In this document: piece after piece, positions 2,755 through 21,562 of the stretch
Layout: each line of letters starts with the position of its first letter
How positions within the stretch are numbered: position 1 is the stretch's first letter
DNA from: a virus
Taxonomy: Duplodnaviria; Heunggongvirae; Uroviricota; Caudoviricetes
Reading direction: 5' to 3' (one strand)
Virus record (IMG/VR): IMGVR_UViG_3300045988_004821
DNA length: 64,000 nt
Program-made: the position numbers and the translations under genes
The notes under the pieces: generated by a model
What the model was told of the DNA's origin: nothing
The model's database searches: none
The model's input: only the letters and a program-made list of their open reading frames with translations

Positions 2755-2792
2755 TCGACGCAGCGGGGCTAAATAGCCCCAGATACCTGAAC

Positions 2793-2817
2793 AGCCCCTT
2801 TAAATAGGGGCTTTTTT
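2793..2817 (+). terminator. rho-independent terminator (AGCCCCT..AGGGGCT + TTTTTT)
   Basis: GC-rich hairpin followed by T-run just after the 2754 stop; a second hairpin GGGGCTAAATAGCCCC lies at 2765-2780. Confidence 0.7.
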
Positions 2818-2820
2818 ACG

Positions 2821-4400
2821 TCTATCCAATCCTTATACAATCCCTTTCCCTTTCCTTTCCAGAATCTTATCAGACCTTAAAAGCAATAACTCTATAGTCC
2901 ACTCTATAACCTTTTATCAAATCAACTTAAATATAAGCCCATAACCCGAAAGGGAAGGGCAACCCCTTAAACGCTCTATAACGCCCTATAACAGCCTTAT
3001 CAACCTAACTTAAGGGGTTGCATTAACTCACCCTAAAAAGCCCTTCCTAGAGCTTCCCAGAGACTTAAAAGAATCTTATAAGGGTGTAAGCTTTATCATC
3101 TCATTAGTATTCTTGTGAATATCTAAAAAGGGTTTGTTAGTGTCTTAAAAGTATGTTATAGGGGGCTATAAAGTTGCTTAAAAGTTACGTAAAAGAGGCT
3201 ATAAAGTTACGTAAATGCTAGCCCCCTTAACATTTTCTTAACAATTTCTTAACAATCCCTACATAGTTATGCTTGTTAGAGACTTGTTAGCCCCTTGTTA
3301 AATCTCTGTTAAGACCACGTAAAAGCCTTGTAAGAGTCTTTGACATAGCCTTAAAAGCTCCTGTAAAGCTCTATAAAGAGGTGTCTGTACAGTTGGGGGG
3401 ATAGATACTAGGAAGAGACTTAAAAGAGCTTATAAAGAGCTATAGAGAGCTTTTAAGAGGTATGTTTAAGAGTTCACTAAGAAGGGAAAGGGAACGATAA
3501 GAAAAGAGTAGTGACCATGTTAATAGCTTGTTAAAAAGATTAAACACTTGTTAGAAACTTGTTAATTACCTTAACAAAATAACTCTTTAAAATTAACTTG
3601 TTAGCTCTTGTTAGTCATCTGTTAAGATTCTGTAAAGCCCTATTAAGTCTTGTTAGAAAACTGTTACAACCTTGTTAGACTTGTTAAGAATCTGTTAAGA
3701 CCTTTGAAGAGTTGTTAAGAAGATGTGAGAACTGTTAAGAGATTGTTAAGGATATTTTAAAATTTTGCAAAGTACTTGTAAGGGAGCTGTTAAGGGCTAC
3801 CAAGCAGATATACATCTTCTACAGATATTTTTCAGTTCCTTCAAAGACCCTAAAAAATGACTTGATAGTCCTATTTTATAAAAATTTTAAGATTCTGAAT
3901 AATTACCTATACAGCCTTTTAAAAATACAGGTAGAAACAGGCTTATAAGATACCTTGTTAGTACCGTGTTAGACCTTGTGAGATAAGGTCTGTAAAGATA
4001 TTCCTGTTAAGTTTGTTAAAACAGTCTATATAGAGGCTTAGTAGTACCTAGTGAACACCTATAGAGAGTAACATAGCTAACCTAGAGATTAAGAGGTGTA
4101 TAGGAGCTTCTAAGAGGGTATAGAGAGATGGTTAAGATGATTGTATAGGTTGTTTAGAAGGCTTGTTAGAAGAGTGTTTAGATGGCTATTTAGAAGGGCT
4201 ATACAGAGGGCTATTAAGACCACTAGATAGTTACTAAGATACTATATAGTACTATATAACTATATAGAGAGTAAGATTAAGAAGGTTGTTAAGAAGGATA
4301 GATATTTTATTCACATATGATGGTGACCCAGAGGTTGGGACAACCGATAAAATTTTATAAAAATTAAAAAGCCCCCAATTAAGGAGGCTCTTAAGATATT
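2821..4400. repeat. ORF-free AT-rich region with dense arrays of short motifs (CTTGTTAG, CTGTTAAGA, CTTAAAAG, CTATAAAG, TTTAGAAGG), many at 11-12 bp spacing
   Basis: No ORF of 60 aa or more on either strand across 1.6 kb; more than 17 TTGTTA-type motifs in 3520-3790 alone. Confidence 0.6.
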
Positions 4401-5024
4401 TTAAATCAGTGTTTCCAGAACTGTCTTCAGTGATGACTTGGTTGTCTGATAAAAATGAGTAAATCCATTGTTGTTATCGAATATCTGCATCATGATATCA
4501 TCACCCTTGATTGGGTAAACTCGGATATCATAGTGAAAACCATTAAAGACACAAGAACCACTACAGAATGCTCTAAAGTCATCCACTGAGATGTACTCTT
4601 CATGACCTGTGATTTTTATACAAACACCTTTACTCGGTCTCTTAGGGTTGATATCTTCCATCACAGACATACTCTGTCCACCAAGAGATACCATAGTGAC
4701 CACTTTACGGTTCTTCTGTTTAAAGTACATCTTAACTTTCTGCAAAGTGTCTTCATAGAACGGATAAGACCTTTCTACAAAGATTCCTTCAAGTGGCTCT
4801 TTACCATTTTCAACTTCTCTGTTATGCCGTACTGCAAAGATAATTTGTTCGAACCAGTCAAGATTTTCTTCGGAGAGTGCTTCCCGAATATCACTCCAAT
4901 CAAGAACTAGATAGTTACCTTCAACTTCTTTTAAGTTATCTTTTTCCATATCTATCACACCATTATCGTAAAACTTGATATTCTGGTACTGCGAATTTAT
5001 TACTATTGTTCTTGATGAGGTCAT
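4401..5024 (-). CDS. hypothetical protein (207 aa; start may be the internal Met giving 4401-4949)
   Basis: Minus-strand ORF; overlaps upstream gene by 62 nt if the first ATG is used. Confidence 0.5.
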   Translation of the reverse strand: MTSSRTIVINSQYQNIKFYDNGVIDMEKDNLKEVEGNYLVLDWSDIREALSEENLDWFEQIIFAVRHNREVENGKEPLEGIFVERSYPFYEDTLQKVKMYFKQKNRKVVTMVSLGGQSMSVMEDINPKRPSKGVCIKITGHEEYISVDDFRAFCSGSCVFNGFHYDIRVYPIKGDDIMMQIFDNNNGFTHFYQTTKSSLKTVLETLI

Positions 5025-12560: not shown

Positions 12561-12932
12561 ATGAAAAACAGAACAAACAAAGGCCAGTTTAAAAAAGGCC
12601 AGTCTGGAAACCCATCTGGAAGACCAAAAGGCTCACGTAACAAAAGTTCACTTGTAAAAGCTCAACTGACCATTGATAATTCTGCTGAGTTTGCTGCAAA
12701 GTTGTTTGAGGCGGTTGTTACAAGGGATGCTGCTAAGCTTGCAGAGTTCGGTTTGACGACTGACGATGTAAACCTGAAGTCGATGATGGAGGCTGGTAAA
12801 ACCATCATGACTCACTCAGCAGGTGAGATGAAAGCGATTGCAGCAGACACTAAGAAGACCCCTGATAATGGTGGTCAGTCTCAGACAGATAACAAACCAA
12901 CGTTCTCTGCTGTTGCAACCCTCAAAAAATAA
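12561..12932 (+). CDS. hypothetical protein with AT-hook-like N-terminal motif (123 aa)
   Basis: N-terminus KGQSGNPSGRPKGSRNK (GRP core flanked by basic residues); SD AAGAGG upstream. Confidence 0.5.
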   Translation: MKNRTNKGQFKKGQSGNPSGRPKGSRNKSSLVKAQLTIDNSAEFAAKLFEAVVTRDAAKLAEFGLTTDDVNLKSMMEAGKTIMTHSAGEMKAIAADTKKTPDNGGQSQTDNKPTFSAVATLKK

Positions 12933-13013: not shown

Positions 13014-14429
13014 ATGAGCGAATTATTTAAACATGCGCACCTTCATGCAGGTCGAACTGAAAATGGTGCTGTAAACCATACTTCATCAATGTCTGCTCTT
13101 GTGGACTTTTACAAAGCTGCTGGTTCCAGCCGTAGCAATGTAGAAATCTTACCAGACCTGTTCTACAAAGCTTTGCGTGAGGATGTTGATGTTGCAGTTC
13201 GTATTTTACTGCATATGCGAGATGTACGAGAAGGTATGGGTGAGCGTAAAGCCTTCAGAACTGTTTTGCTTCAAGCGATTGAAGACAAAGTTTTAGAACC
13301 TGTACAGGTTCTTCGCATTATGGATAAGATTGCAGAACTTGGTCGTTTTGATGACTTCAAAATCTTCGTAGGTACTCGTTTCGAGACAGATGCCTTCAAA
13401 CATTTAGAAGCAGCATTACTAGACCCTGCAACAGCAGGTTTGGCGGCTAAGTGGTTACCACGAGTCAAACCACGTCATAAGCAGTTTGTAAAACGTTTCT
13501 GCAAGTTTGCCAACTTAAGTGAGAAAGAGTACCGCACACTGTTGTCTGCACTATCTGATACAGTTGAGCAAAAAATCTCTGCTAATGAGTTTGGTAAGAT
13601 TGACTACAGTAAGATTCCTTCACTTGCTGCTGCACGTTACCAAAAACTGTTTAACCGTAAAGATGGAGAACGCTACAAAGCTTACATCGAGTCATTATCA
13701 AAGGGTGAGGCTAAGATTAATGCTGGTGCTGTTTACCCATACGATGTGATTAAATCTGTTAAGTATGGTAATGCAGATGTTGCTAATGAGCAGTGGAAAG
13801 CACTACCAAACTGGATGGCAGAGGGTGAGAACATTTTGTGTATGACTGATGTCTCAAGCTCAATGTCTTGGGTGAATTTCGGTTCAATCACTGCTCTTGA
13901 TATTGGTGTATCTCTTGCACTGTATGTAGCAGAACGCAATACTGGTTGTTTTAAAAATGAGTCAATGGTTTATTCAACAAACCCTCACTTCATCGAACTG
14001 AGTGGTGATTTACGAAACCGTCATCGTCAGGTAATGCGTTATACTGAATATGGTTCAACTAACTTACAAGCAGCTTTTGACCGTATTCTTGAGACAGGTA
14101 AAAGAAACAACTTGACTCAGAAAGATATGCCAAGTAAGCTTATCATCTTCTCCGATATGGAGTTCAATCAGGTTGATGGAGCTAACGGTCGTACAAACTT
14201 TGAAGCAATTCAGAGTAAGTACAAAAAAGCTGGATATGAGATGCCACAACTGGTATTCTGGTACTTAGCAAACCGTAATGGTACTTGCGAAGTATCTGTT
14301 AAGGATAACGGTGTAGCAATGGTATCAGGGTTCTCTCCAGCCACTTTAAAAGCTCTGCTTGGTGGTGAGAAGTTTGACCCAATCAGCGTAATGCTCAAAG
14401 CAGTAATGATTGACCGTTATATCTGGTAA
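13014..14429 (+). CDS. VWA-domain protein with N-terminal helical domain; Ro60 (TROVE-VWA) / DUF2828-like architecture
   Basis: Intact MIDAS motif DVSSSMS in the C-terminal half; N-terminal TENGA motif; 471 aa; sits directly upstream of the tRNA array. Confidence 0.5.
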   Translation: MSELFKHAHLHAGRTENGAVNHTSSMSALVDFYKAAGSSRSNVEILPDLFYKALREDVDVAVRILLHMRDVREGMGERKAFRTVLLQAIEDKVLEPVQVLRIMDKIAELGRFDDFKIFVGTRFETDAFKHLEAALLDPATAGLAAKWLPRVKPRHKQFVKRFCKFANLSEKEYRTLLSALSDTVEQKISANEFGKIDYSKIPSLAAARYQKLFNRKDGERYKAYIESLSKGEAKINAGAVYPYDVIKSVKYGNADVANEQWKALPNWMAEGENILCMTDVSSSMSWVNFGSITALDIGVSLALYVAERNTGCFKNESMVYSTNPHFIELSGDLRNRHRQVMRYTEYGSTNLQAAFDRILETGKRNNLTQKDMPSKLIIFSDMEFNQVDGANGRTNFEAIQSKYKKAGYEMPQLVFWYLANRNGTCEVSVKDNGVAMVSGFSPATLKALLGGEKFDPISVMLKAVMIDRYIW

Positions 14430-14447
14430 AAAGTTTTAAAAAGGGTA

Positions 14448-14476
14448 TTGACAATGTGTTTAATACCCTTTAATAT
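14448..14476 (+). promoter_or_regulatory. sigma70-type promoter (TTGACA-17-TAATAT) upstream of tRNA array
   Basis: Consensus -35, 17-bp spacer, near-consensus -10, A/T-rich upstream tract; a second TTGACA box at 14539. Confidence 0.6.
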
Positions 14477-14594
14477 GTTCTACATAGAAACGAAATGAGA
14501 GCTTTTCTAAGATACTGAAAAATATTTTAAAAAAGTTCTTGACAACCACTAAAAAATAATGTTAAAGTGGTTACATAGAGTTTGAAAAGTTTAT

Positions 14595-14671
14595 CTCTGT
14601 TTAGCTCAGCTTGGTAGAGCGTTCCGTTTGGGGCGGTAAGGCCGGAGGTTCAAGTCCTCCAACAGAGACCA
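14595..14671 (+). tRNA. tRNA-Pro (anticodon TGG)
   Basis: Cloverleaf by eye: acceptor CTCTGTT/AACAGAG, D-arm GCTC..GAGC, T-arm GGAGG-TTCAAGT-CCTCC, encoded CCA; one mismatch in anticodon stem. Confidence 0.6.
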
Positions 14672-14678
14672 AATTAAT

Positions 14679-14756
14679 GTTCCAGTAGACAAAATGGTAA
14701 AGTCACCACTCTTTCAAAGTGGATATTTGAGGGTTCAAATCCCTTCTGGAACGCCA
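14679..14756 (+). tRNA. tRNA-Glu (anticodon TTC)
   Basis: Acceptor GTTCCAG/CTGGAAC, anticodon arm CCACT-CTTTCAA-AGTGG, T-loop TTCAAAT, CCA encoded. Confidence 0.7.
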
Positions 14757-14762
14757 GTTTTG

Positions 14763-14837
14763 ACAGAAGACCAATTACAGCAAACTTAATCTACTCATCT
14801 GAAAGTTAATCGGACAAAGAAGATATTTGGTCTGGTC
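14763..14837 (+). ncRNA. stem-closed spacer element, copy a (AGACCAA..TTGGTCT arms, TTACAGCAA box)
   Basis: One of four copies with conserved ACAGAAGACC..TTACAGCAA 5' end and GGTCTGG 3' end; arm sequence covaries between copies. Confidence 0.4.
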
Positions 14838-14846
14838 ATTAAGAAT

Positions 14847-14923
14847 TGCGGGTATAGAGAAAGGGCGTCTCACATGTCTCATTAGCATGGTATCGGCAGG
14901 TTCGACTCCTGCACCCGCCTCCA
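14847..14923 (+). tRNA. tRNA with CAT anticodon (Met or Ile-lysidine), position 1:72 unpaired
   Basis: Anticodon arm CATGT-CTCATTA-GCATG, T-arm GCAGG-TTCGACT-CCTGC, CCA encoded; T1 opposite C72. Confidence 0.5.
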
Positions 14924-14928
14924 AATTT

Positions 14929-14996
14929 ACAGAAGACCGTTTACAGCAATATTTATTAAATTTTTAGCGGAAAAAATTGAAATATACGGTCTGGTA
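14929..14996 (+). ncRNA. stem-closed spacer element, copy b (AGACCGT..ACGGTCT arms)
   Basis: Same architecture as copy a with compensatory arm change CAA/TTG to CGT/ACG. Confidence 0.4.
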
Positions 14997-15007
14997 ATAC
15001 TAAACAT

Positions 15008-15084
15008 GGTTAGGAAGCACATAAGGTATGTGCGGTCGCCTGTTAAGCGAATGGCACAGGGTTCGAATCCCTGACTAACCGCCA
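15008..15084 (+). tRNA. tRNA-Asn (anticodon GTT)
   Basis: D-arm GCAC..GTGC, anticodon loop CTGTTAA, T-arm CAGGG-TTCGAAT-CCCTG, CCA encoded. Confidence 0.7.
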
Positions 15085-15093
15085 AATTTAAAT

Positions 15094-15181
15094 GTGTCGT
15101 TATCCCGTAGATGGTAGCGGTGGGGACTGTAAATCCCTTGTCATTGAGACTCGGTAGGTTCGACTCCTACACGGCACACCA
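15094..15181 (+). tRNA. tRNA-Tyr (anticodon GTA), long variable arm
   Basis: 88 nt; anticodon arm GGGGA-CTGTAAA-TCCCT; T-arm GTAGG-TTCGACT-CCTAC; CCA encoded. Confidence 0.7.
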
Positions 15182-15186
15182 ATAAA

Positions 15187-15264
15187 GGTTATGTAGTTTA
15201 ATTTGGTTAAAATACTCCCCTGTCACGGGAGATGATGAGGGTTCAAATCCCTTCGTAACCGCCA
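15187..15264 (+). tRNA. tRNA-Asp (anticodon GTC)
   Basis: Anticodon arm CTCCC-CTGTCAC-GGGAG; acceptor GGTTATG/CGTAACC; CCA encoded. Confidence 0.7.
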
Positions 15265-15292
15265 ATTTTGAGAGGGCTATTTAGCCCCTCCC

Positions 15293-15320
15293 TTAAAGGG
15301 TTCTTACGAGTATCCTTTAA
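15293..15320 (+). promoter_or_regulatory. conserved hairpin TTAAAGG-[GTTCTTACGAGTAT]-CCTTTAA
   Basis: Second copy at 18407-18430 has the same 14-nt loop (1-2 changes) and a covarying stem (TAAGG/CCTTA). Confidence 0.45.
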
Positions 15321-15325
15321 AGGAG

Positions 15326-15400
15326 CAGAAGACCAAATACAGCAAGTTACTTAAAATTTCAAGCCAATTTAATTTTGAAAAATTTAAAACTTGGTCTGGC
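15326..15400 (+). ncRNA. stem-closed spacer element, copy c (AGACCAA..TTGGTCT arms)
   Basis: Conserved 5' CAGAAGACC..ACAGCAA and 3' GGTCTGG ends. Confidence 0.4.
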
Positions 15401-15411
15401 TCAACAAATTT

Positions 15412-15545
15412 ACAGAAGACCGTTTACAGCAAAACTTAAACAATCTATTTCTCGGTAAAGAAAAGGCGAAGGTTCGATTCCTTCACTCGGCAGATGTCGA
15501 GTTGGTGTAATGGTAGCACTTAAGATGATAAACAACGGTCTGGTA
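15412..15545 (+). ncRNA. stem-closed element, copy d, containing a circularly permuted tRNA-like module (Y-RNA-like candidate)
   Basis: Outer arms AGACCGTT/AACGGTCT; inside, T-arm GAAGG-TTCGATT-CCTTC, then acceptor-like 7-bp stem ACTCGGC/GTCGAGT closed by loop AGAT, then TG and D-arm GTGT-AATGGTA-GCAC. Confidence 0.45.
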
Positions 15546-15688
15546 ATTATCTTTGTAGATAAGTTATTAAGCTTACCTGTGAGTATGCGACCACAAAGGG
15601 TGAAAGGGTAAATTCTAGATTTAAACCCAAAAAGGCACATCGCTACAGACCTTAAGCAAGTCTGGGTAGCTTATCTACAAAGATAATT
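15545..15688 (+). ncRNA. element bounded by a perfect 19-bp inverted repeat (AATTATCTTTGTAGATAAG / CTTATCTACAAAGATAATT) with 106-nt interior
   Basis: Perfect inverted repeat at 15545-15563 and 15670-15688; interior has a nested hairpin CTACAGAC..GTCTGGGTAG; abuts tRNA-Lys. Confidence 0.35.
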
Positions 15689-15692
15689 TAAT

Positions 15693-15768
15693 GGAAGTGT
15701 AGCAGAATGGTGATGCGGCAGACTTTTAATCTGACAGGCGATGGGTTCGAATCCCTCCACTTCTACCA
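15693..15768 (+). tRNA. tRNA-Lys (anticodon TTT)
   Basis: Acceptor GGAAGTG/CACTTCT, anticodon loop CTTTTAA, T-loop TTCGAAT, CCA encoded; T-stem has a bulge. Confidence 0.6.
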
Positions 15769-15772
15769 ATAT

Positions 15773-15849
15773 GGTTCAGTCGCAGATAAGGTAATGCAAG
15801 GGTCTCATAAGCCCTATGAATGTGGGTTCGATTCCCATCTGAACCTCCA
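15773..15849 (+). tRNA. tRNA with CAT anticodon (Met / Ile-lysidine / initiator-like GGG:CCC anticodon stem)
   Basis: Anticodon arm AGGGT-CTCATAA-GCCCT; acceptor GGTTCAG/CTGAACC; CCA encoded. Confidence 0.6.
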
Positions 15850-15850
15850 A

Positions 15851-15926
15851 GCTGGTATAGTTAAGAAGGTTATAACACTCCCCTGATAAGGGAACATCGG
15901 TGGTTCGATTCCACCTACCAGTACCA
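15851..15926 (+). tRNA. tRNA-Ile (anticodon GAT)
   Basis: D-arm GTTA..TAAC, anticodon loop CTGATAA, T-arm GGTGG-TTCGATT-CCACC, CCA encoded. Confidence 0.7.
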
Positions 15927-15941
15927 ATTTCAATAAAGTTG

Positions 15942-15970
15942 TTGACATTGAGATGTGACTACTTTATAGT
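15942..15970 (+). promoter_or_regulatory. sigma70-type promoter (TTGACA-17-TATAGT) inside tRNA array
   Basis: Consensus -35, 17-bp spacer, TATAGT -10, A/T-rich upstream. Confidence 0.6.
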
Positions 15971-16174
15971 AACCTTAGTTTTCGTTGCGTAGCGTCTATT
16001 TTGCAAATTTAAAATAAATGCAAACGACAATGTTTTTCTGGCAGTAGCTTGATAGGCTAAACACCAGTGAGGTCTTCCAATCCCTCATCAAAGAATTTGG
16101 CGTACTCGCCCACGGTATGATTAATAAGGTGGGCATCTTTAAGGGCTTTCTAAGAGAGTCTTTAAAGATAATTA

Positions 16175-16256
16175 CGGGGCGTATCTCAGCGGTCTTCTAA
16201 ACCGCCGTTAACCGAGTAAGTGGAGTATGCGGGTTCGAGTCCTGCCGCCTCGACCA
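16175..16256 (+). tRNA. atypical tRNA-like element (acceptor/T-arm minihelix; hairpin with TCT in a 7-nt loop where the D-arm should be; possibly degenerate tRNA-Arg)
   Basis: Acceptor CGGGGCG/CGCCTCG, T-arm GCGGG-TTCGAGT-CCTGC, CCA encoded, but no canonical D-arm and no anticodon arm at the expected position. Confidence 0.35.
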
Positions 16257-16399
16257 ATTTAGTTAGCAGATTACTTAGACGACCTTATCGGGTCTTCCTG
16301 TAGGGAGGTGGTCTGTATCTCATGTTTTCCAGAACATGTAAATAATCTGAGAAGGGGCTTTACAGTGTTGAGATAATACGGTAAGCTTCGAATTATAGT

Positions 16400-16482
16400 A
16401 TGGGACGATGTTAAGACTCTAAGGCATGAGCAACGGCTTCCAACACCGTTTCAAAGGGGTTCAACTCCTCCGTCCCATGCCA
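16400..16482 (+). tRNA. tRNA-Trp (anticodon CCA) with extended D region
   Basis: Perfect acceptor ATGGGAC/GTCCCAT, anticodon arm ACGGC-TTCCAAC-ACCGT, T-loop TTCAACT, CCA encoded; D region about 7 nt longer than canonical. Confidence 0.5.
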
Positions 16483-16495
16483 AAGTCTTATTAGG

Positions 16496-16583
16496 GGTAG
16501 GTAGCGGCTAATGGCAGCCAAACAGTCTTGAAAACTGTTGCCACTGTAGAGATACGGTGAGGGTTCGACTCCTTTACTTACCG
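16496..16583 (+). tRNA. tRNA-Ser (anticodon TGA), long variable arm; CCA not encoded
   Basis: Anticodon arm AACAGT-CTTGAAA-ACTGTT; acceptor GGTAGGT/ACTTACC; discriminator G. Confidence 0.65.
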
Positions 16584-16840
16584 CCTAATAAGATTTACAC
16601 CGTCCATGCTTGCTCGCATTTTCGGTTTATCCCTCGTGTATTGTCGTACACACTGATAAAGCACCTAGTAGGTGTCACGGAGAAGAGATAATATCAAGCT
16701 CTCCAAAGGTTCTAGTCACCGGATTAAACAAGACTATGCAAAGACCTTTTTAGGTCTTTTTAGAGGGCTTCTAAGGTTATTACAGCTTGTTGTGGAACCT
16801 TGTTGCTTAGGTTCTTAGAAGTTCTCTAAAAAGATTTAAT

Positions 16841-16918
16841 GGGAGATTGACGGTAATTGGTAAACCTACCATCCTTAGAAGTTGGTGTTTGAGGGTTCGA
16901 ATCCCTTGTCTCCCACCA
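16841..16918 (+). tRNA. tRNA with Leu anticodon TAG but short (class-I) variable region
   Basis: Acceptor GGGAGAT/GTCTCCC, Leu-like D-arm GGT-AATTGGTAA-ACC, anticodon loop CTTAGAA, discriminator A, CCA encoded; 78 nt. Confidence 0.5.
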
Positions 16919-16925
16919 AATTAAT

Positions 16926-17001
16926 GCAGGTGTAGCAAAATGGTTATGCGGCTGACTCTTAATCAGTAAGACGATGGGTTCAATTCCCTCCACCTGTACC
17001 A
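16926..17001 (+). tRNA. tRNA-Lys (anticodon CTT)
   Basis: Anticodon arm GCTGA-CTCTTAA-TCAGT; acceptor GCAGGTG/CACCTGT; CCA encoded. Confidence 0.6.
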
Positions 17002-17007
17002 AACAAT

Positions 17008-17083
17008 GGGGTCATAGTTTATATGGTTAAAATTCGAGTTTTGCAAACTTGGGAACTGAGTTCAATTCTCAGTGACTCCACCA
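17008..17083 (+). tRNA. tRNA-Ala (anticodon TGC)
   Basis: Anticodon arm CGAGT-TTTGCAA-ACTTG; T-arm CTGAG-TTCAATT-CTCAG; CCA encoded. Confidence 0.7.
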
Positions 17084-17089
17084 ATTAGT

Positions 17090-17164
17090 GCATCCATAGT
17101 TTAAACGGGAAAATTACAGTCTTCCAAACTGAGGTTGAGGGTTCGATTCCCTCTGGATGCTCCA
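17090..17164 (+). tRNA. tRNA-Gly (anticodon TCC)
   Basis: Perfect acceptor GCATCCA/TGGATGC; anticodon loop CTTCCAA; T-arm GAGGG-TTCGATT-CCCTC; CCA encoded. Confidence 0.65.
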
Positions 17165-17171
17165 AATTAAT

Positions 17172-17247
17172 GCTCCTATCGTATAATTGGCTATTACGGT
17201 TGCCTTGTAAGTAACTTATCAGGGTTCGAATCCTTGTTGGAGCACCA
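17172..17247 (+). tRNA. tRNA-Thr (anticodon TGT)
   Basis: D-stem CGTA/TACG; anticodon arm GTTGC-CTTGTAA-GTAAC; T-loop TTCGAAT; CCA encoded. Confidence 0.65.
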
Positions 17248-17344
17248 ATTTAGAGGTCAAGTGAAAGACCGCTTTGAGTCAACTGAAGACCGTAACAAAT
17301 CCCACGGAGTTGAGTTAGCGGCACAACTTCAGACCTCTTTTCAC

Positions 17345-17419
17345 ACTCGCTTAGTTTATATGGTAAAACATCACCCTTACAAGATGAAGAAGAAGGTTCA
17401 AGTCCTTTAGTGAGTACCA
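17345..17419 (+). tRNA. tRNA-Val (anticodon TAC)
   Basis: D-stem GTTT/AAAC; anticodon loop CTTACAA; T-arm GAAGG-TTCAAGT-CCTTT; CCA encoded. Confidence 0.65.
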
Positions 17420-17420
17420 T

Positions 17421-17498
17421 GTTCCAGTATCCCAATTGGTAGAGGATGCAAGCTCAAACCTTGTACTAGTGACGGTTCGAATCCGTCTTGGAACACCA
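17421..17498 (+). tRNA. tRNA with Leu anticodon CAA but short (class-I) variable region
   Basis: Leu-like D-arm TCC-CAATTGGTAGA-GGA; anticodon arm GCAAG-CTCAAAC-CTTGT; T-arm GACGG-TTCGAAT-CCGTC; discriminator A; 78 nt. Confidence 0.5.
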
Positions 17499-17503
17499 AT
17501 TTT

Positions 17504-17579
17504 GCAGGATTAGTTCAAATGGATAGAGCAACAGTCTACGAAGCTGTTAATAGGGGTTCGAATCCCTTATCCTGCGCCA
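17504..17579 (+). tRNA. tRNA-Arg (anticodon ACG)
   Basis: Perfect acceptor GCAGGAT/ATCCTGC; anticodon arm ACAGT-CTACGAA-GCTGT; CCA encoded. Confidence 0.7.
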
Positions 17580-17598
17580 ATTTAAAGAGGCTATTTAG

Positions 17599-18156
17599 AT
17601 GAGATATTTGAAGTATGCTTCATGGATTTTCTTAGCTTTGTTAGAGCCATTTGCAGCAATCTTAGCAGTTATCTTAGCACCTTTCGTAGTTCCATTCTAC
17701 AGTGAGAAGAAAGGACATCTGCCTTTCGGGTTCAGATGGATGGAAACTTATGACAACCCAATTGATGGTGATGAAGGTCACGTTAAAAGATGGGCTAATA
17801 TTAGATGGATTGGTAAACTAGGTGTCTACATGCAAAGAGTCGGATGGCTCTGGAGAAACAAAGCTTATAACTTCTCTTACCATGTATTAGGAAGAGATGT
17901 AAAAGATGTTACTAAGTGGAAAGGTAATATCAACGTAAGTTCTGACCCTGAAGATAATCAGACAGGTTATCTCCTAATGTGGAACAGTAATGCTTGGGGA
18001 TTATTCGCTTTTATCCCATCAATTAAAATCTTTGGTAAACAATTCTACTGGAGAATTTATGTTGGATGGAAGCTAAAAAGTGTTGTCCCAGAAGAAAGAG
18101 CATTCTCAAGGGAAAGAGTTATGTTGGCATTCTTTATTCACCCACTAAGAAAGTAA
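17599..18156 (+). CDS. hypothetical membrane protein encoded inside the tRNA array (185 aa)
   Basis: N-terminal hydrophobic stretch WIFLALLEPFAAILAVILAPFVVPF; flanked by tRNA genes. Confidence 0.5.
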   Translation: MRYLKYASWIFLALLEPFAAILAVILAPFVVPFYSEKKGHLPFGFRWMETYDNPIDGDEGHVKRWANIRWIGKLGVYMQRVGWLWRNKAYNFSYHVLGRDVKDVTKWKGNINVSSDPEDNQTGYLLMWNSNAWGLFAFIPSIKIFGKQFYWRIYVGWKLKSVVPEERAFSRERVMLAFFIHPLRK

Positions 18157-18164
18157 AGATTTAA

Positions 18165-18240
18165 AGGGGATTAGTTTACAAGGTTAAAACCTCGGTCTTT
18201 GAAATCGAAGAAGTTGGTTCAATTCCAACATCCCCCGCCA
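18165..18240 (+). tRNA. tRNA-Gln (anticodon TTG)
   Basis: Anticodon arm TCGGT-CTTTGAA-ATCGA; T-arm GTTGG-TTCAATT-CCAAC; CCA encoded; A1 opposite C72. Confidence 0.65.
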
Positions 18241-18242
18241 AT

Positions 18243-18321
18243 GCTCCATTACTCCAATTGGCAGAGAGGCCAGACTTAAAATCTGTGTTATGTATCGGTT
18301 CGAATCCGATATGGAGTACCA
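18243..18321 (+). tRNA. tRNA with Leu anticodon TAA, Leu-like D-arm but short variable region
   Basis: D-arm CTC-CAATTGGCAGA-GAG; anticodon loop CTTAAAA; T-arm ATCGG-TTCGAAT-CCGAT; discriminator A; 79 nt. Confidence 0.55.
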
Positions 18322-18326
18322 AATTT

Positions 18327-18402
18327 AGCGGTATAGCATAACTGGAAATGCAACAGTCTCTGAAGCTGTCCTATTAAGGTTCAAATCCTTATGCCGCTGC
18401 CA
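18327..18402 (+). tRNA. tRNA-Gln (anticodon CTG)
   Basis: D-stem GCAT/ATGC; anticodon arm ACAGT-CTCTGAA-GCTGT; T-arm TAAGG-TTCAAAT-CCTTA; CCA encoded. Confidence 0.6.
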
Positions 18403-18406
18403 CTTC

Positions 18407-18430
18407 TAAGGGTTCTTACGAGAGTCCTTA
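18407..18430 (+). promoter_or_regulatory. conserved hairpin TAAGG-[GTTCTTACGAGAGT]-CCTTA (second copy)
   Basis: Same loop as 15293-15320 with covarying stem. Confidence 0.45.
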
Positions 18431-18433
18431 AAT

Positions 18434-18509
18434 GTGGCCTTATCATAAATGGTAATGACCCATGCTGTGAACATGGTCTATACGGGTTCAAATCCCGTAG
18501 GTCACCCCA
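18434..18509 (+). tRNA. tRNA-His (anticodon GTG)
   Basis: D-stem TCAT/ATGA; perfect anticodon arm CCATG-CTGTGAA-CATGG; T-arm ACGGG-TTCAAAT-CCCGT; no encoded G-1. Confidence 0.7.
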
Positions 18510-18515
18510 ATTTAT

Positions 18516-18591
18516 AGTCCAAGTAGCTTATATGGTTAAAGCGCGTGTCTGAAAAACATGAGAAGAGGGTTCAAATCCCACTGGACTACCA
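18516..18591 (+). tRNA. tRNA-Phe (anticodon GAA)
   Basis: Anticodon arm CGTGT-CTGAAAA-ACATG; T-loop TTCAAAT; CCA encoded. Confidence 0.65.
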
Positions 18592-18607
18592 ATTTCAAAG
18601 GTGCTTA

Positions 18608-19342
18608 ATGAAAGAGATGACAGAACAAGGTAAGGAGATTTTTAATCTCTTAAAAACCGGTAAAGGGTTCTCTAACCCACTTATCACTGGTGCAGCAGTT
18701 CTCGGTGGAACCGTAGCTGCTTCTACATCACTTGTAAGCTCTATTAGTTCTGTAACAGACCCTACAATGAAGGAGAAACTTGTTGCTGCTGGACTTACAA
18801 CAGTCCTTCTAAACAGCTTTACAACAAGCCTTACAAGCACTACAGCAACTACTAAAACTCTGACAGACTACGGTCAAAAGTCTATTGATGAGTTTTCATC
18901 ACGTATGCAGGTAGCAAAGGGGTATTCCAATGTTATGGGTGCAGCAGGAGAACAAGTTGGTTGTACACCATTCAGTGGTATCATGGGTGTTGCTACAGAG
19001 TATGGTCAAAAAGCTATTGACATGATGAACAGTACACTAGATAGTGTTAATGGTGTGTTAAGTGACTTGCAAGATGCTATTGATAAGGGTCTTGATACTG
19101 TTTCTGATTTAGCTAATCAGGCTGTTAGTAAGATTAATGAGGGTATTTCAAAGATTACAGCTTATGCAGATGAAGTTGTGCAGATGATTGAAGAAGAAGC
19201 TGCCCTTATTGCAGAGTACCTTAAAACGAATATCAATGGGTTCTTAGCAGGTATCTTACCAGACTGGTTTGATGATGCCTGTAAAACTGGTGTAATTGAC
19301 ACTATTGCAACACCAGAAATGAAGAGCGCATTACAGAAATAA
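18608..19342 (+). CDS. hypothetical protein with hydrophobic and Ser/Thr-rich N-terminal region (244 aa)
   Basis: Start moved to the ATG at 18608 (SD AAGGTG upstream) because the track start at 18545 overlaps tRNA-Phe. Confidence 0.5.
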   Translation: MKEMTEQGKEIFNLLKTGKGFSNPLITGAAVLGGTVAASTSLVSSISSVTDPTMKEKLVAAGLTTVLLNSFTTSLTSTTATTKTLTDYGQKSIDEFSSRMQVAKGYSNVMGAAGEQVGCTPFSGIMGVATEYGQKAIDMMNSTLDSVNGVLSDLQDAIDKGLDTVSDLANQAVSKINEGISKITAYADEVVQMIEEEAALIAEYLKTNINGFLAGILPDWFDDACKTGVIDTIATPEMKSALQK

Positions 19343-19738: not shown

Positions 19739-19939
19739 ATGAGCGAGACCGTTTATAAAGAACTTTATGAAGCTAATAAGAAGCTAGAATTTATGCAGAA
19801 TACTATCATGGCAATTGCAGACAGATTGTCTGTAGCAACAGGTATTGATATTAAAGAAGCATCTATGGATGCACTTCTTGATGCTGTTGATGCAAAGTTC
19901 GAAGTTAAGAAAGAAGAGACTGCTACAGACTCTGAATAA
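19739..19939 (+). CDS. hypothetical small protein upstream of terminase (66 aa)
   Basis: SD GGAGAAAACATAATG; position only, too small to call terminase small subunit. Confidence 0.45.
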   Translation: MSETVYKELYEANKKLEFMQNTIMAIADRLSVATGIDIKEASMDALLDAVDAKFEVKKEETATDSE

Positions 19940-19960
19940 TTCTATTTGCGGAGGTGCTTA

Positions 19961-21562
19961 ATGGACTTAAATGCTGTTAAGCAGAAGCGAGTGGAAGATG
20001 TTAGGAAAGTCCTAGCTGGAGAGTTGGGGCTTTCTGATGAAGTAAAAGAAATTATCAAATCATTCGGTAAAGACCCCTCTAAATTCCTTCCAACTCAAAT
20101 TCTGACTTTATTAAGATACACACCAGACCAAGTTCGCCTTATCTTTAAATTGATGACTGATAAGAACTATGTAGCCCCTCAGCCGGGTTCTCAAGAGGTC
20201 TTTTTAAATACTAATGCTGACTTGGTTCTCTATGGTGGTGCTGCTGGTGCTGGTAAGACTGCTGCATTGTTAATGGACTCTTTAAGATTTATTGAAGACC
20301 CTAACTATAATGCTGTATATTTCCGTCGAAATACAACACAGTTACAAGGTGGTTTATGGCCTGCTGCAAAGAAACTGTTTGGTAAGTTTGGTGGGATTCC
20401 TCACGAGCAGAAAATGACTATCACATTCCCTTCTGGGGCGACTATCAAGTTTACCTACCTAGAACTTGAAAAGCACGCTGAAGGTCATCAGGGTATTGAA
20501 TACTCAGCTATTTACTTTGACGAAGGTACACACTTCTCTGCTTCACAGATTTCATACCTACAAACCCGTCTACGTTCTGGTGCTGAAGGCGATTCATACA
20601 TGAAGATTTCCATGAACCCAGACAGAGACCATTTTATTTATGATTGGGTAGAACCATTCTTAGATGAAGAAGGTTATCCAGACCCTGAAAAGTGTGGTCG
20701 TATTCGTTGGTATGTAATGAACGATGGTGTGATGGTTTCTGATTGGGAGAGAGACAAGATTCTTGAAATGTTCCCTCTTGAGATTCCTCAAACATACACC
20801 TTCATCTCTGGTACGATTGATGATAACCCAATTCTTGACTTCTTAGAACCAAAGTATCGCGGTAAGCTTGAAAACAACACTCCTGTAAACGTTGCAAGAC
20901 TTCGTTTCGGTAACTGGAAGGCTCGTGCAGAAGGTTCAAACTATTGGCAAAGACAATGGTGTGAAATTGTTGATTCACTCCCAGAAGATGTATTTGATGT
21001 TAGAGCATGGGACTTAGCAGCAACTTTACCATCTGAGATTAACCCTAATCCAGACTGGACAGCAGGTGTTAAGATGGGTAAATCTAAAAAAGACGGTTGC
21101 TATTATATCATTGATGTAGTAAGATTTAGAGATAGACCCTCTGGAGTCGAAACACAAATTAATTTGACTGCTGAAAGTGACGGTAAGCGAACTGGTATTT
21201 TTATCCCTCAAGACCCAGGCGCTGCTGGTAAATCCTACGCAACATCCCTCATCAGGAAACTTGCCGAGAAAGGCTATCGTGCAAGAGCTAAACCAACAAA
21301 TAAAGATAAAGTTACCCGCTTTGCGGGATTTTCTGCTGCTTCTGAAGCTGGACTTGTAAAAGTCTTGAGAGGTAGTTGGAACGAAGCTTACTTTCAAGAG
21401 CTTGAAGGCTTTTGTGGTGATGGCAAAACTAAAGATGACCAAGTGGATGCTACCAGTGATGCTTTCAACAGTCTTAACGAAGTTAAATTATTCAAGCCAC
21501 CATCAATGGGTGCTCACACAGACTTAGTGAGAGGAAACCCATATGAGGGGCTTAGACGTTGA
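19961..21562 (+). CDS. terL: terminase large subunit
   Basis: Walker A-like LYGGAAGAGKTAAL; about 530 aa; directly upstream of portal; start set at the ATG with SD GGAGGTG. Confidence 0.8.
   Translation: MDLNAVKQKRVEDVRKVLAGELGLSDEVKEIIKSFGKDPSKFLPTQILTLLRYTPDQVRLIFKLMTDKNYVAPQPGSQEVFLNTNADLVLYGGAAGAGKTAALLMDSLRFIEDPNYNAVYFRRNTTQLQGGLWPAAKKLFGKFGGIPHEQKMTITFPSGATIKFTYLELEKHAEGHQGIEYSAIYFDEGTHFSASQISYLQTRLRSGAEGDSYMKISMNPDRDHFIYDWVEPFLDEEGYPDPEKCGRIRWYVMNDGVMVSDWERDKILEMFPLEIPQTYTFISGTIDDNPILDFLEPKYRGKLENNTPVNVARLRFGNWKARAEGSNYWQRQWCEIVDSLPEDVFDVRAWDLAATLPSEINPNPDWTAGVKMGKSKKDGCYYIIDVVRFRDRPSGVETQINLTAESDGKRTGIFIPQDPGAAGKSYATSLIRKLAEKGYRARAKPTNKDKVTRFAGFSAASEAGLVKVLRGSWNEAYFQELEGFCGDGKTKDDQVDATSDAFNSLNEVKLFKPPSMGAHTDLVRGNPYEGLRR

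Follow-up and report, generated by a model that had tools for sequence, protein, structure and literature searches.

Phased motif arrays in a conserved gene-free gap at the probable chromosome terminus of a Felix O1-like myophage

The window analysed here is a 64,000-nucleotide stretch of viral DNA (IMG/VR record IMGVR_UViG_3300045988_004821), and the element under study is a gene-free gap at positions 2755-4400, which carries arrays of short repeated motifs and probably contains the ends of the phage chromosome. The gap is bordered by an 82-amino-acid (aa) gene on the + strand that ends at 2754 and by a gene on the - strand that ends at 4401, and the open reading frames (ORFs) flanking it belong only to PHROG families of unknown function, with no significant match in Pfam. 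The initial annotation of this DNA, which was made from the letters alone, had reported no ORF of 60 aa or more in the region, and this holds, the longest ORFs being 35 aa (3440-3547, - strand), 31 aa (3765-3860, + strand) and 37 aa (4110-4223, - strand). In the corresponding gaps of 10 relatives the longest ORF was 49 aa, and none was positionally conserved. The placement of the gap between convergent operons is likewise borne out by terminator-like hairpins at its two edges. At the left edge an intrinsic terminator of the upstream + strand operon lies at 2793-2820, with the stem AGCCCCTTTAAATAGGGGCT followed by a T-run; its hairpin (2793-2812) is kept in all 10 aligned phages and is an annotated terminator in AYO145A and Mordin. 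At the right edge the intrinsic terminator of the downstream - strand operon lies at 4357-4392 (AAGAGCCTCCTTAATTGGGGGCTTTT; hairpin 4392-4367, - strand) and is annotated as such in AYO145A. The two convergent terminators shield the gap from transcription. A second conserved hairpin, GGGGCTAAATAGCCCC, was observed at 2763-2782, just past the stop codon that closes the 82-aa gene and in tandem with the terminator at 2793-2812.

The BLAST results showed that the source of the window is a Felixounavirus; a T5-like injection-stop region was dropped as a reading on this result. The gap as a query matched 257 phage records, 201 of them across at least 80% of its length, and, bar one Staphylococcus-labelled entry, everything in the organism tally was either a Felix O1-like phage or a phage of the enterobacteria which that group infects. 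More than 200 relatives in three genera carry a 1.6-1.7 kb non-coding gap that is 82-93% identical to the one in the window, and each relative examined has the equivalent gap of 1.6-1.7 kb between the same flanking genes. These include Felix O1, AYO145A, fjerdesal, UAB_69, HK3, JH2 and Bas63 in Felixounavirus, Mordin, Sf17 and HP1 in Mooglevirus, and SUSP2 in Suspvirus, together with SB18 and Hena2 in Kolesnikvirus, in which the gap is more diverged. The identity of the gap to Mordin, Sf17 and SUSP2 is 82-85%, in comparison to 64-76% for the flanking coding sequences. Since the gap is non-coding and yet better conserved than its coding neighbours, it is a cis-acting element. The initial annotation had named unrelated sequence or protein-coding genes at this place in related phages as the result that would count against it, and what the relatives have instead is homologous non-coding DNA whose conservation exceeds that of the flanking genes.

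The physical ends of several of these relatives were found to fall within the gap. Pr103Blw has an annotated 581-bp 'short direct terminal repeat', identical at both ends of the record, which aligns to 3221-3801 of the window with 93% identity and which was obtained with PhageTerm (PMC8303462). The Citrobacter phage HP1, a Mooglevirus, has an identical 570-bp repeat_region at both ends with the same boundaries, beginning with the letters GCCCCCTTAACA and finishing with GGGCTACC, and the annotated 'DTR' (direct terminal repeat) of UAB_69 aligns to 3219-3803. In addition, the records of H12, E9, CRP22 and ECP2307, along with other records, begin or end exactly at the homologue of position 3221; the homologous point directly after AAATGCTA is where the H12 and Hena2 records end and where, in Pr103Blw and HP1, the DTR copy of the right end starts. 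For UAB_Phi87 a DTR of 608 bp was measured by Bal31 digestion and run-off sequencing (PMC4837284), and we counted 614 bp between its boundary motifs, the measured repeat having been matched by length, as the record was not opened at its ends. The DTRs of these other Ounavirinae (UAB_Phi87 608 bp, Pr103Blw 581 bp, HP1 570 bp, and UAB_69) are homologous to the segment in the window at 85-93% identity (PMC4837284; PMC8303462), have boundaries within 2 nt of those found here, and are flanked by the same genes.

By this homology the DTR equivalent of the window, of about 581 bp and read on the + strand, is placed at about 3221-3801, and the gap as a whole is laid out, on the same alignments, as a right-end arm (2755-3220), the DTR (3221-3801) and a left-end arm (3802-4400). 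The same sequence at both ends of the virion DNA with fixed boundaries, which is what marks a DTR of the T7 type, was thus found through the relatives, and the presence of a single copy in the window is as expected of an assembly in which the repeat was collapsed. That Felix O1-type phages have a DTR is already known and is annotated in several GenBank records. The published reports on the other Ounavirinae repeats give repeat length and position only, and phased arrays, mirrored units and arm conservation are not described in the searchable papers. Similarly, the searchable literature yielded no description of the phase lock in the TGTTAAG field, of the mirrored units at the ends, of the above-coding conservation of the whole 1.65 kb or of the DUF5681 small terminase candidate treated below, and the gap is not discussed in the genome papers of Felix O1, wV8 and VpaE1. 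The PhageMaP essentiality screen of Bas63 had no guides in the gap because no coding sequence is annotated there.

To describe the motif content, counts in the gap were compared with expected counts derived from the rest of the window. The results showed a very large excess for the TTGTTA-type motifs, with 13 copies of CTTGTTA against 0.18 expected, 10 copies of TTGTTAG against 0.12, 10 copies of TGTTAAG against 0.39, 9 copies of CTTGTTAG against 0.03 and 6 copies of CTTAAAAG against 0.25. The earlier count of more than 30 motif copies is matched by the 5-mer core, of which the gap has 34 copies in total (TGTTA 28 times on the + strand, TAACA 6 times), and the stricter form YTGTTAR is present in 24 + 3 copies, at 25 times its density outside the gap. 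Two further motifs, ACGTAAAWG (at 3187, 3209 and 3317) and CTATA(T/G)AG, occur within the window only in the gap. With respect to the spacing of 11-12 bp reported before, the 11-bp distance was found to be dominant in the TGTTA family, while the 12-bp distance is limited to the TTTAGAAGG family (units at 4154, 4166, 4178 and 4190). The DTR contains 20 TGTTA cores on the + strand, four at 3274-3307 with spacings of 11, 11 and 11 bp, and sixteen at 3518-3788 with spacings of 11, 20, 11, 39, 10, 11, 31, 11, 11, 9, 11, 20, 20, 11 and 44 bp.

The helical-turn periodicity claimed for the motif positions was confirmed by the phase of these cores. All 20 share one phase at a period of 10.2-10.3 bp, with a Rayleigh R of 0.76-0.84 in comparison to 0.46 +/- 0.06 for random placements, none of which (0/2000) reached the observed phasing, and the two groups of cores are in register across the 211 bp between them. 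A phase lock at about 10.3 bp puts the cores on one side of the helix, so that all of them lie on one helix face. Across 11 phages of three genera, with DTRs of 569-614 bp, the phase of the cores was 10.2-10.5 bp and R was 0.72-0.81. The power of the AA dinucleotide at 10-11 bp peaks at 3101-3400 with a value of 20.4, which is the maximum of the whole window (99th percentile 13.1). Two further stretches, at about 300-700 and 1650-2000, rank among the top 1% of the window for AA/TT periodicity at 10-11 bp; they lie within or between small genes upstream of the gap.

The variation among the relatives follows the same units. Core positions are 96-98% conserved in comparison to 78-82% for the 3-5 nt spacers between them (10 genomes; Mann-Whitney p = 5e-10), and conserved cores with drifting spacers are the footprint expected of protein-binding sites. 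The insertions and deletions (indels) among the relatives are 11-, 22- and 12-bp repeat units, and the differences in DTR length are mostly 11- or 22-bp indels of array units, plus small palindromic insertions. Together with the phasing on one face, these patterns lend indirect support to the reading of the region as a nucleoprotein-assembly array. The palindromic mini-insertions are 22-29 bp long and of two kinds (GATTCGATAGAATC-type and TTGGTATTGTTACCAA-type), and they stand at differing sites of the gap in each phage, at window equivalents near 2860 in fjerdesal, near 3130 and 3598 in UAB_69, near 3820 in JH2, near 2805, 2960 and 3598 in SUSP2, and near 4390 in Mordin, scattered as if mobile; the window itself has none of either kind.

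The arms and the repeat are built from distinct blocks. The non-coding right-end arm (2755-3220, + strand), which is unique sequence preceding the DTR, has a column conservation of 0.86, and at 3060-3220 (+ strand) it carries an array of CTTAAAAG, CTATAAAG and ACGTAAA(A/T)G units that adjoins the left DTR boundary and varies among relatives by 11- and 22-bp unit indels. The DTR then opens with a left terminal box (3221-3255, - strand), in which GCCCCC is followed by three inverted TTAACA units at 3227, 3238 and 3249, with a spacing of 11 bp; the box is kept in Felixounavirus, Mooglevirus and Suspvirus, and Kolesnikvirus has part of it. It is followed on the + strand by four CTTGTTA/CTGTTA units at exact 11-bp spacing (3272-3312), whose copy number in relatives varies by 11- or 22-bp indels, by a central array of CTTAAAAG, CTGTAAAG, CTATAAAG and TTATAAAG units with a period of 10-11 bp (3344-3460; about 4 copies with a period of 10-11 at 3413-3463), and by the main array of 16 same-strand TGTTA(R) cores with a phase of 10.3 bp (3518-3794), which stops 8 nt short of the right DTR boundary. 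In the main array R was 0.84 at a period of 10.3 (reached by 0/2000 random placements), and conservation was 0.985 for core and 0.81 for non-core positions. Directly outside the right boundary lies the AAGCAGATATACA box (3802-3814, + strand), with 12 of its 13 positions invariant in all 10 aligned phages; it is present in the three genera, and the Kolesnikvirus phages SB18 and Hena2 have AAGCAGATATACA or AAGTAGATATACA. The unique non-coding left-end arm (3802-4400, + strand) contains TGTTA units (3955-4018), the 12-bp TTTAGAAGG array (4147-4220) and CTATATAG units (4240-4270), and no part of the gap is better conserved than the segment 3802-4330, with a value of 0.894.

The units at the two boundaries of the DTR were found to be arranged as mirror images. 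Read inward, the left end is GCCCCC-TTAACA-tttt-CTTAACA-attt-CTTAACA, and the right end, on the complement strand, is GGTAGCCC-TTAACA-gctc-CCTTACA in the window and GGTAGCCC-TTAACA-gccc-CTTAACA in Felix O1, so that at both ends a C-rich box is followed by two or three units that point outward and are spaced by 11 bp. The DTR has its three leftmost units flipped, the distance from each cut site inward to an outward-pointing unit is 6-8 nt, and TAGCCC at the left boundary forms an inverted pair with GGGCTA at the right boundary. In Kolesnikvirus the TGTTAAG arrays are kept within a predicted 438-bp repeat and the AAGCAGATATACA box is kept as well, while the upstream arm has a different motif, TCTTCTAAG. 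Keeping the arrays of the DTR while changing the motif of the arm points to one conserved system of repeat recognition, with accessory sites in the arms that probably evolve faster.

For the protein that might bind these arrays, the initial annotation had suggested the AT-hook-like product of a gene at 12561, which has proved a good lead, at the level of sequence, on account of its family, its N-terminal motif and the position of its homologues upstream of large terminase (TerL) genes. The gene (12561-12932, + strand) encodes a 123-aa protein with an AT-hook-like N-terminus, which matches Pfam family PF18932 (DUF5681) at E 7e-14, its 52.5 bits exceeding the cut-off of 27.5; conservation of the protein extends through the subfamily and outside it. 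The family has an invariant N-terminal motif, GNPsGRPKGSrN, and the best match of the family profile in the PDB was the HMG-I/Y AT-hook PRGRPKGSKNKG, which is statistically weak (E 0.19); in this comparison the stretch P-s-G-R-P-K-G-S-r-N-k agrees with the AT-hook of HMGA (HMG-I/Y; PDB 2EZD) at 10 of 12 positions. The likeness is confined to the 12-residue motif, the rest of the protein being an unrelated predicted helical domain, and DNA binding is putative. The AlphaFold2 model has a mean predicted local distance difference test (pLDDT) score of 67, with a basic disordered N-terminus at residues 1-27 and helices at 28-99. No match to the model was found in the PDB by Foldseek at E <= 0.001, and the sequence search of the family against the PDB returned no small terminase (TerS).

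The genomic context of distant DUF5681 homologues was informative in five of the six cases, the sixth being a short contig without DNA. In two of the six (P0041 and P0042) the gene lies directly upstream of a Pfam-verified TerL and overlaps its start; in two (P0053 and P0051) it directly precedes ORFs of 442-470 aa, which is the size of TerL, and one of these weakly matches Terminase_6N (E 0.002); and in one (P0040, marine) it shares an operon with TerL, which follows after about 2 kb and is itself followed by a Mu-type portal gene. On the contigs of these distant phages, no repeat arrays of a comparable kind were found within 4 kb of the DUF5681 gene. In the window the 12561 gene opens the + strand block that also contains TerL, 7 kb further downstream. 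TerL itself (19946-21562, + strand; Terminase_6N E 2e-43 and Terminase_6C E 4e-33 in Pfam) is the nuclease and motor expected to cut the DTR boundaries, and the Felix O1-type TerL clusters with terminases of the DTR type in the terminase tree of PMC4837284, according to which no terminase subunit other than the large one is recognisable in Felix O1-type phages. Synteny and motif together make the 12561 protein the best candidate for TerS and for the binder of the arrays. A 66-aa predicted helical ORF at 19739-19939 was also observed directly 5' of TerL, in the classical position of TerS; it belongs to phrog_4397 (unknown function) with no significant match in Pfam or NCBIfam, and is a candidate for an alternative or additional packaging accessory. 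This ORF and four others, located near TerL or beside the gap, matched only PHROG or Pfam families of unknown function. Between the 12561 gene and TerL lie a Ro60-like gene and a cluster of transfer RNA (tRNA) genes, the latter as annotated in the relative H12. This Ro60/TROVE-like 'RNA-binding protein' gene (13014-14429) directly precedes the large tRNA cluster, which maps from H12 to about 14300-19300, and a PhageMaP preprint has speculated that some of these 'tRNAs' are Y RNAs.

Taken together, we consider the gap to be the chromosome-terminus region, or concatemer junction, of a Felix O1-like myophage, with the phased motifs serving as sites of the packaging complex, and we assign this a probability of roughly 0.7. 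The initial annotation had offered a replication origin, a partition-like site and a packaging or terminus region as options; the third of these stood, as the physical ends and the whole DTR fall inside the gap, and the first two gained no positive support. A terminus role would explain why 1.65 kb without genes is better conserved than the neighbouring genes, and ends at about 3221 and 3801 would allow correct orientation and annotation of this genome. Felix O1-type phages are in use for Salmonella and E. coli diagnostics and biocontrol, and anyone engineering them should regard the region as one large cis-acting element that offers no space for inserts.

Several points weigh against this. 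The ends of this particular genome were placed by homology to relatives, and the starts of some records may have been copied from earlier records and not mapped independently. Both arms are as conserved as the DTR, which makes other functions possible, such as replication priming, end protection or ejection control. The boundary cuts are imperfectly symmetric, at 6 and 8 nt from the nearest TTAACA. With regard to the protein, the TerS candidate is 7 kb away from TerL in this phage, its AT-hook match is short (E 0.19), its AlphaFold model is mediocre (pLDDT 67) and no solved TerS fold was matched; moreover, a core that contains a G, like TGTTA, is not one that AT-hooks are known to recognise with such precision, and the pairing of protein and motif here is drawn from sequence.

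If the terminus reading is correct, a mechanism can be proposed. The TGTTA cores would be minor-groove or AT-core sites for an oligomeric packaging-recognition protein, for which the DUF5681 AT-hook protein, acting as TerS, would be the best candidate, and the DTR would wrap around this oligomer. The complex would then bring TerL to the two mirror-image boundaries for cutting or nicking, the single copy of the DTR in the concatemer would be duplicated by strand-displacement synthesis as in the general T7 model, and the motif fields in both arms would extend or regulate the same complex. In its fullest form, which we regard as tentative and rather doubtful, DUF5681 would be a previously unassigned TerS family, in phages for which the lack of a small terminase has long been reported, with a eukaryote-like AT-hook, and its oligomer wraps the 580-bp DTR through about 20 minor-groove contacts one turn apart and directs two mirror-image cuts. 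If true, this would be a type of packaging recognition distinct from cos, pac and T7 pacB, and it would give a function to the DUF5681 proteins of many other phages; the phased field, the mirrored units and the DUF5681 protein together provide a testable model for phages without a recognised small terminase.

One reading that competes with packaging is that the array binds a phage or host protein of the nucleoid or end-binding type that is unrelated to packaging, with nuclease protection, pausing of ejection (as in the T5 injection-stop region) or end-to-end recombination into concatemers as possible roles. The phasing on one face and the top-1% AA periodicity suggest bent or wrapped DNA, the arrays reach well past the DTR into both arms, and the same inward-reading units at both ends are as expected of an end-binding factor, all of which would suit such a protein. 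However, each terminal array ends with a unit whose short distance to the cut site does not vary, and this links the motif to cleavage; while no candidate for an unrelated binder was identified, a TerS-like AT-hook protein is present and is conserved across the same subfamily. We therefore consider this reading unlikely.

An iteron-type replication origin, in which an initiator binds the phased repeats and melts an adjacent AT-rich stretch, could coexist with the DTR, and secondary origins of T7 do adjoin its ends, at phiOL and phiOR, two features annotated in the T7 record. The gap does have many phased direct repeats, with invariant AT-rich blocks adjoining the arrays (e.g., CTATTTTATAAAAATTTTA at about 3870-3890), in which it resembles lambda ori, P1 oriR and plasmid iterons. 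Yet iterons measure 17-22 bp, occur in 4-8 copies and are located within or next to the gene of their initiator, and nothing of this kind applies here: there is no adjacent initiator gene, and no Rep-like product is annotated in the relative H12 (Pharokka). A perfect match to the DnaA-box consensus TTATNCACA is present once, at 4307-4315 (TTATTCACA), but it is not conserved, the relatives reading TTGTTCACA or TTTATCACA. The phage has a T7-type set of replication genes (polymerase, primase-helicase, exonuclease and ligase), and this type makes no use of iterons. Cumulative GC skew, which the initial annotation had proposed as a way to locate an origin or termini, was uninformative for an origin, as it turns only where gene orientation turns. 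An origin in the gap appears improbable, though part of the arms may have such a function. A partition site gained no support either, as no ParA or ParB is annotated in H12 (Pharokka) and the lifestyle is virulent, with no plasmid-prophage stage.

A phage-specific promoter cluster or a long structured non-coding RNA is very hard to maintain, for although some units resemble AT-rich -10 elements (TATAAAG) and the left arm folds better than shuffled sequences (+ strand z -3.5, - strand z -4.9), there is no enrichment of sigma-70-like sites (10 in comparison to 7.0 +/- 2.5 expected), a spacing of 11 bp is too close for every unit to be a promoter, both terminators point into the gap, the right arm folds no better than shuffles (z -0.3 and -0.7), compensatory changes were seen in 0 of 67 predicted pairs (covariation term -0.71), and the sole Rfam hit at E <= 1 was Phe_leader, with 26 bits against a gathering score of 55, over the terminator. 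The low folding energy of the left arm stems from inverted repeats which the relatives lack; a literature search found no transcriptome paper on a Felixounavirus.

Among known systems, the closest functional analogue of the chromosome terminus proposed here is that of T7. Both have a short exact DTR in non-coding DNA, both have motifs of the heptamer class inside the terminal repeat and in adjacent arrays (SRL/SRR in T7), and the T7-type replication gene set is common to both phages. In T7, three copies of ACCTAAAG lie in the 160-bp repeat and about 12 further copies, mostly 13 bp apart, follow at 175-355. The key differences are the length of the repeat (581 bp here, 160 bp in T7), the spacing of the units (11 bp with a phase of about 10.3 bp here, 13 bp in T7), the motif sequences, which are unrelated, the setting, which consists of convergent terminators here and of the promoters A0, phiOL and phiOR in T7, the mirrored terminal units at both ends, which are not seen in T7, and TerS, which is a candidate only here and gp18 in T7. 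Sequence homology to the T7 region was not found, as the near and distant BLAST searches gave organism tallies without any T7-type phage, which contained Felix O1-type genera or enterobacterial hosts, bar one Staphylococcus-labelled entry, one Enterobacter entry and one unnamed entry, and a literature search for the T7 heptamer ACCTAAAG returned only unrelated uses of the string.

Repeated short motifs that flank the cut site of a terminase are also a feature of the P1 pac hexamers, the lambda cosB R sites and the SPP1 pacL/pacR boxes, which are thought to assemble oligomeric TerS on bent DNA. There, 3-7 copies span 100-200 bp, and packaging is of the headful or cos kind, whereas here at least 20 copies extend over 580 bp inside the DTR, with two cut sites in mirror orientation.

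Another repeated element was observed upstream of the gap. A cassette of 39 nt, CAACGGGGAGGGAATGACCTTCCCCACTAAATAAAGTCC, consisting of a hairpin and a leader, is present in three exact copies, at 943-981, 2105-2143 and 2435-2473, in comparison to 0 expected, with a variant at about 1505-1550 and the tail of another copy at 1-45. The copies lie directly 5' of the ribosome-binding sites of successive small + strand genes, and the cassette may be a terminator or processing site, or a translation cassette, of this early-gene block.

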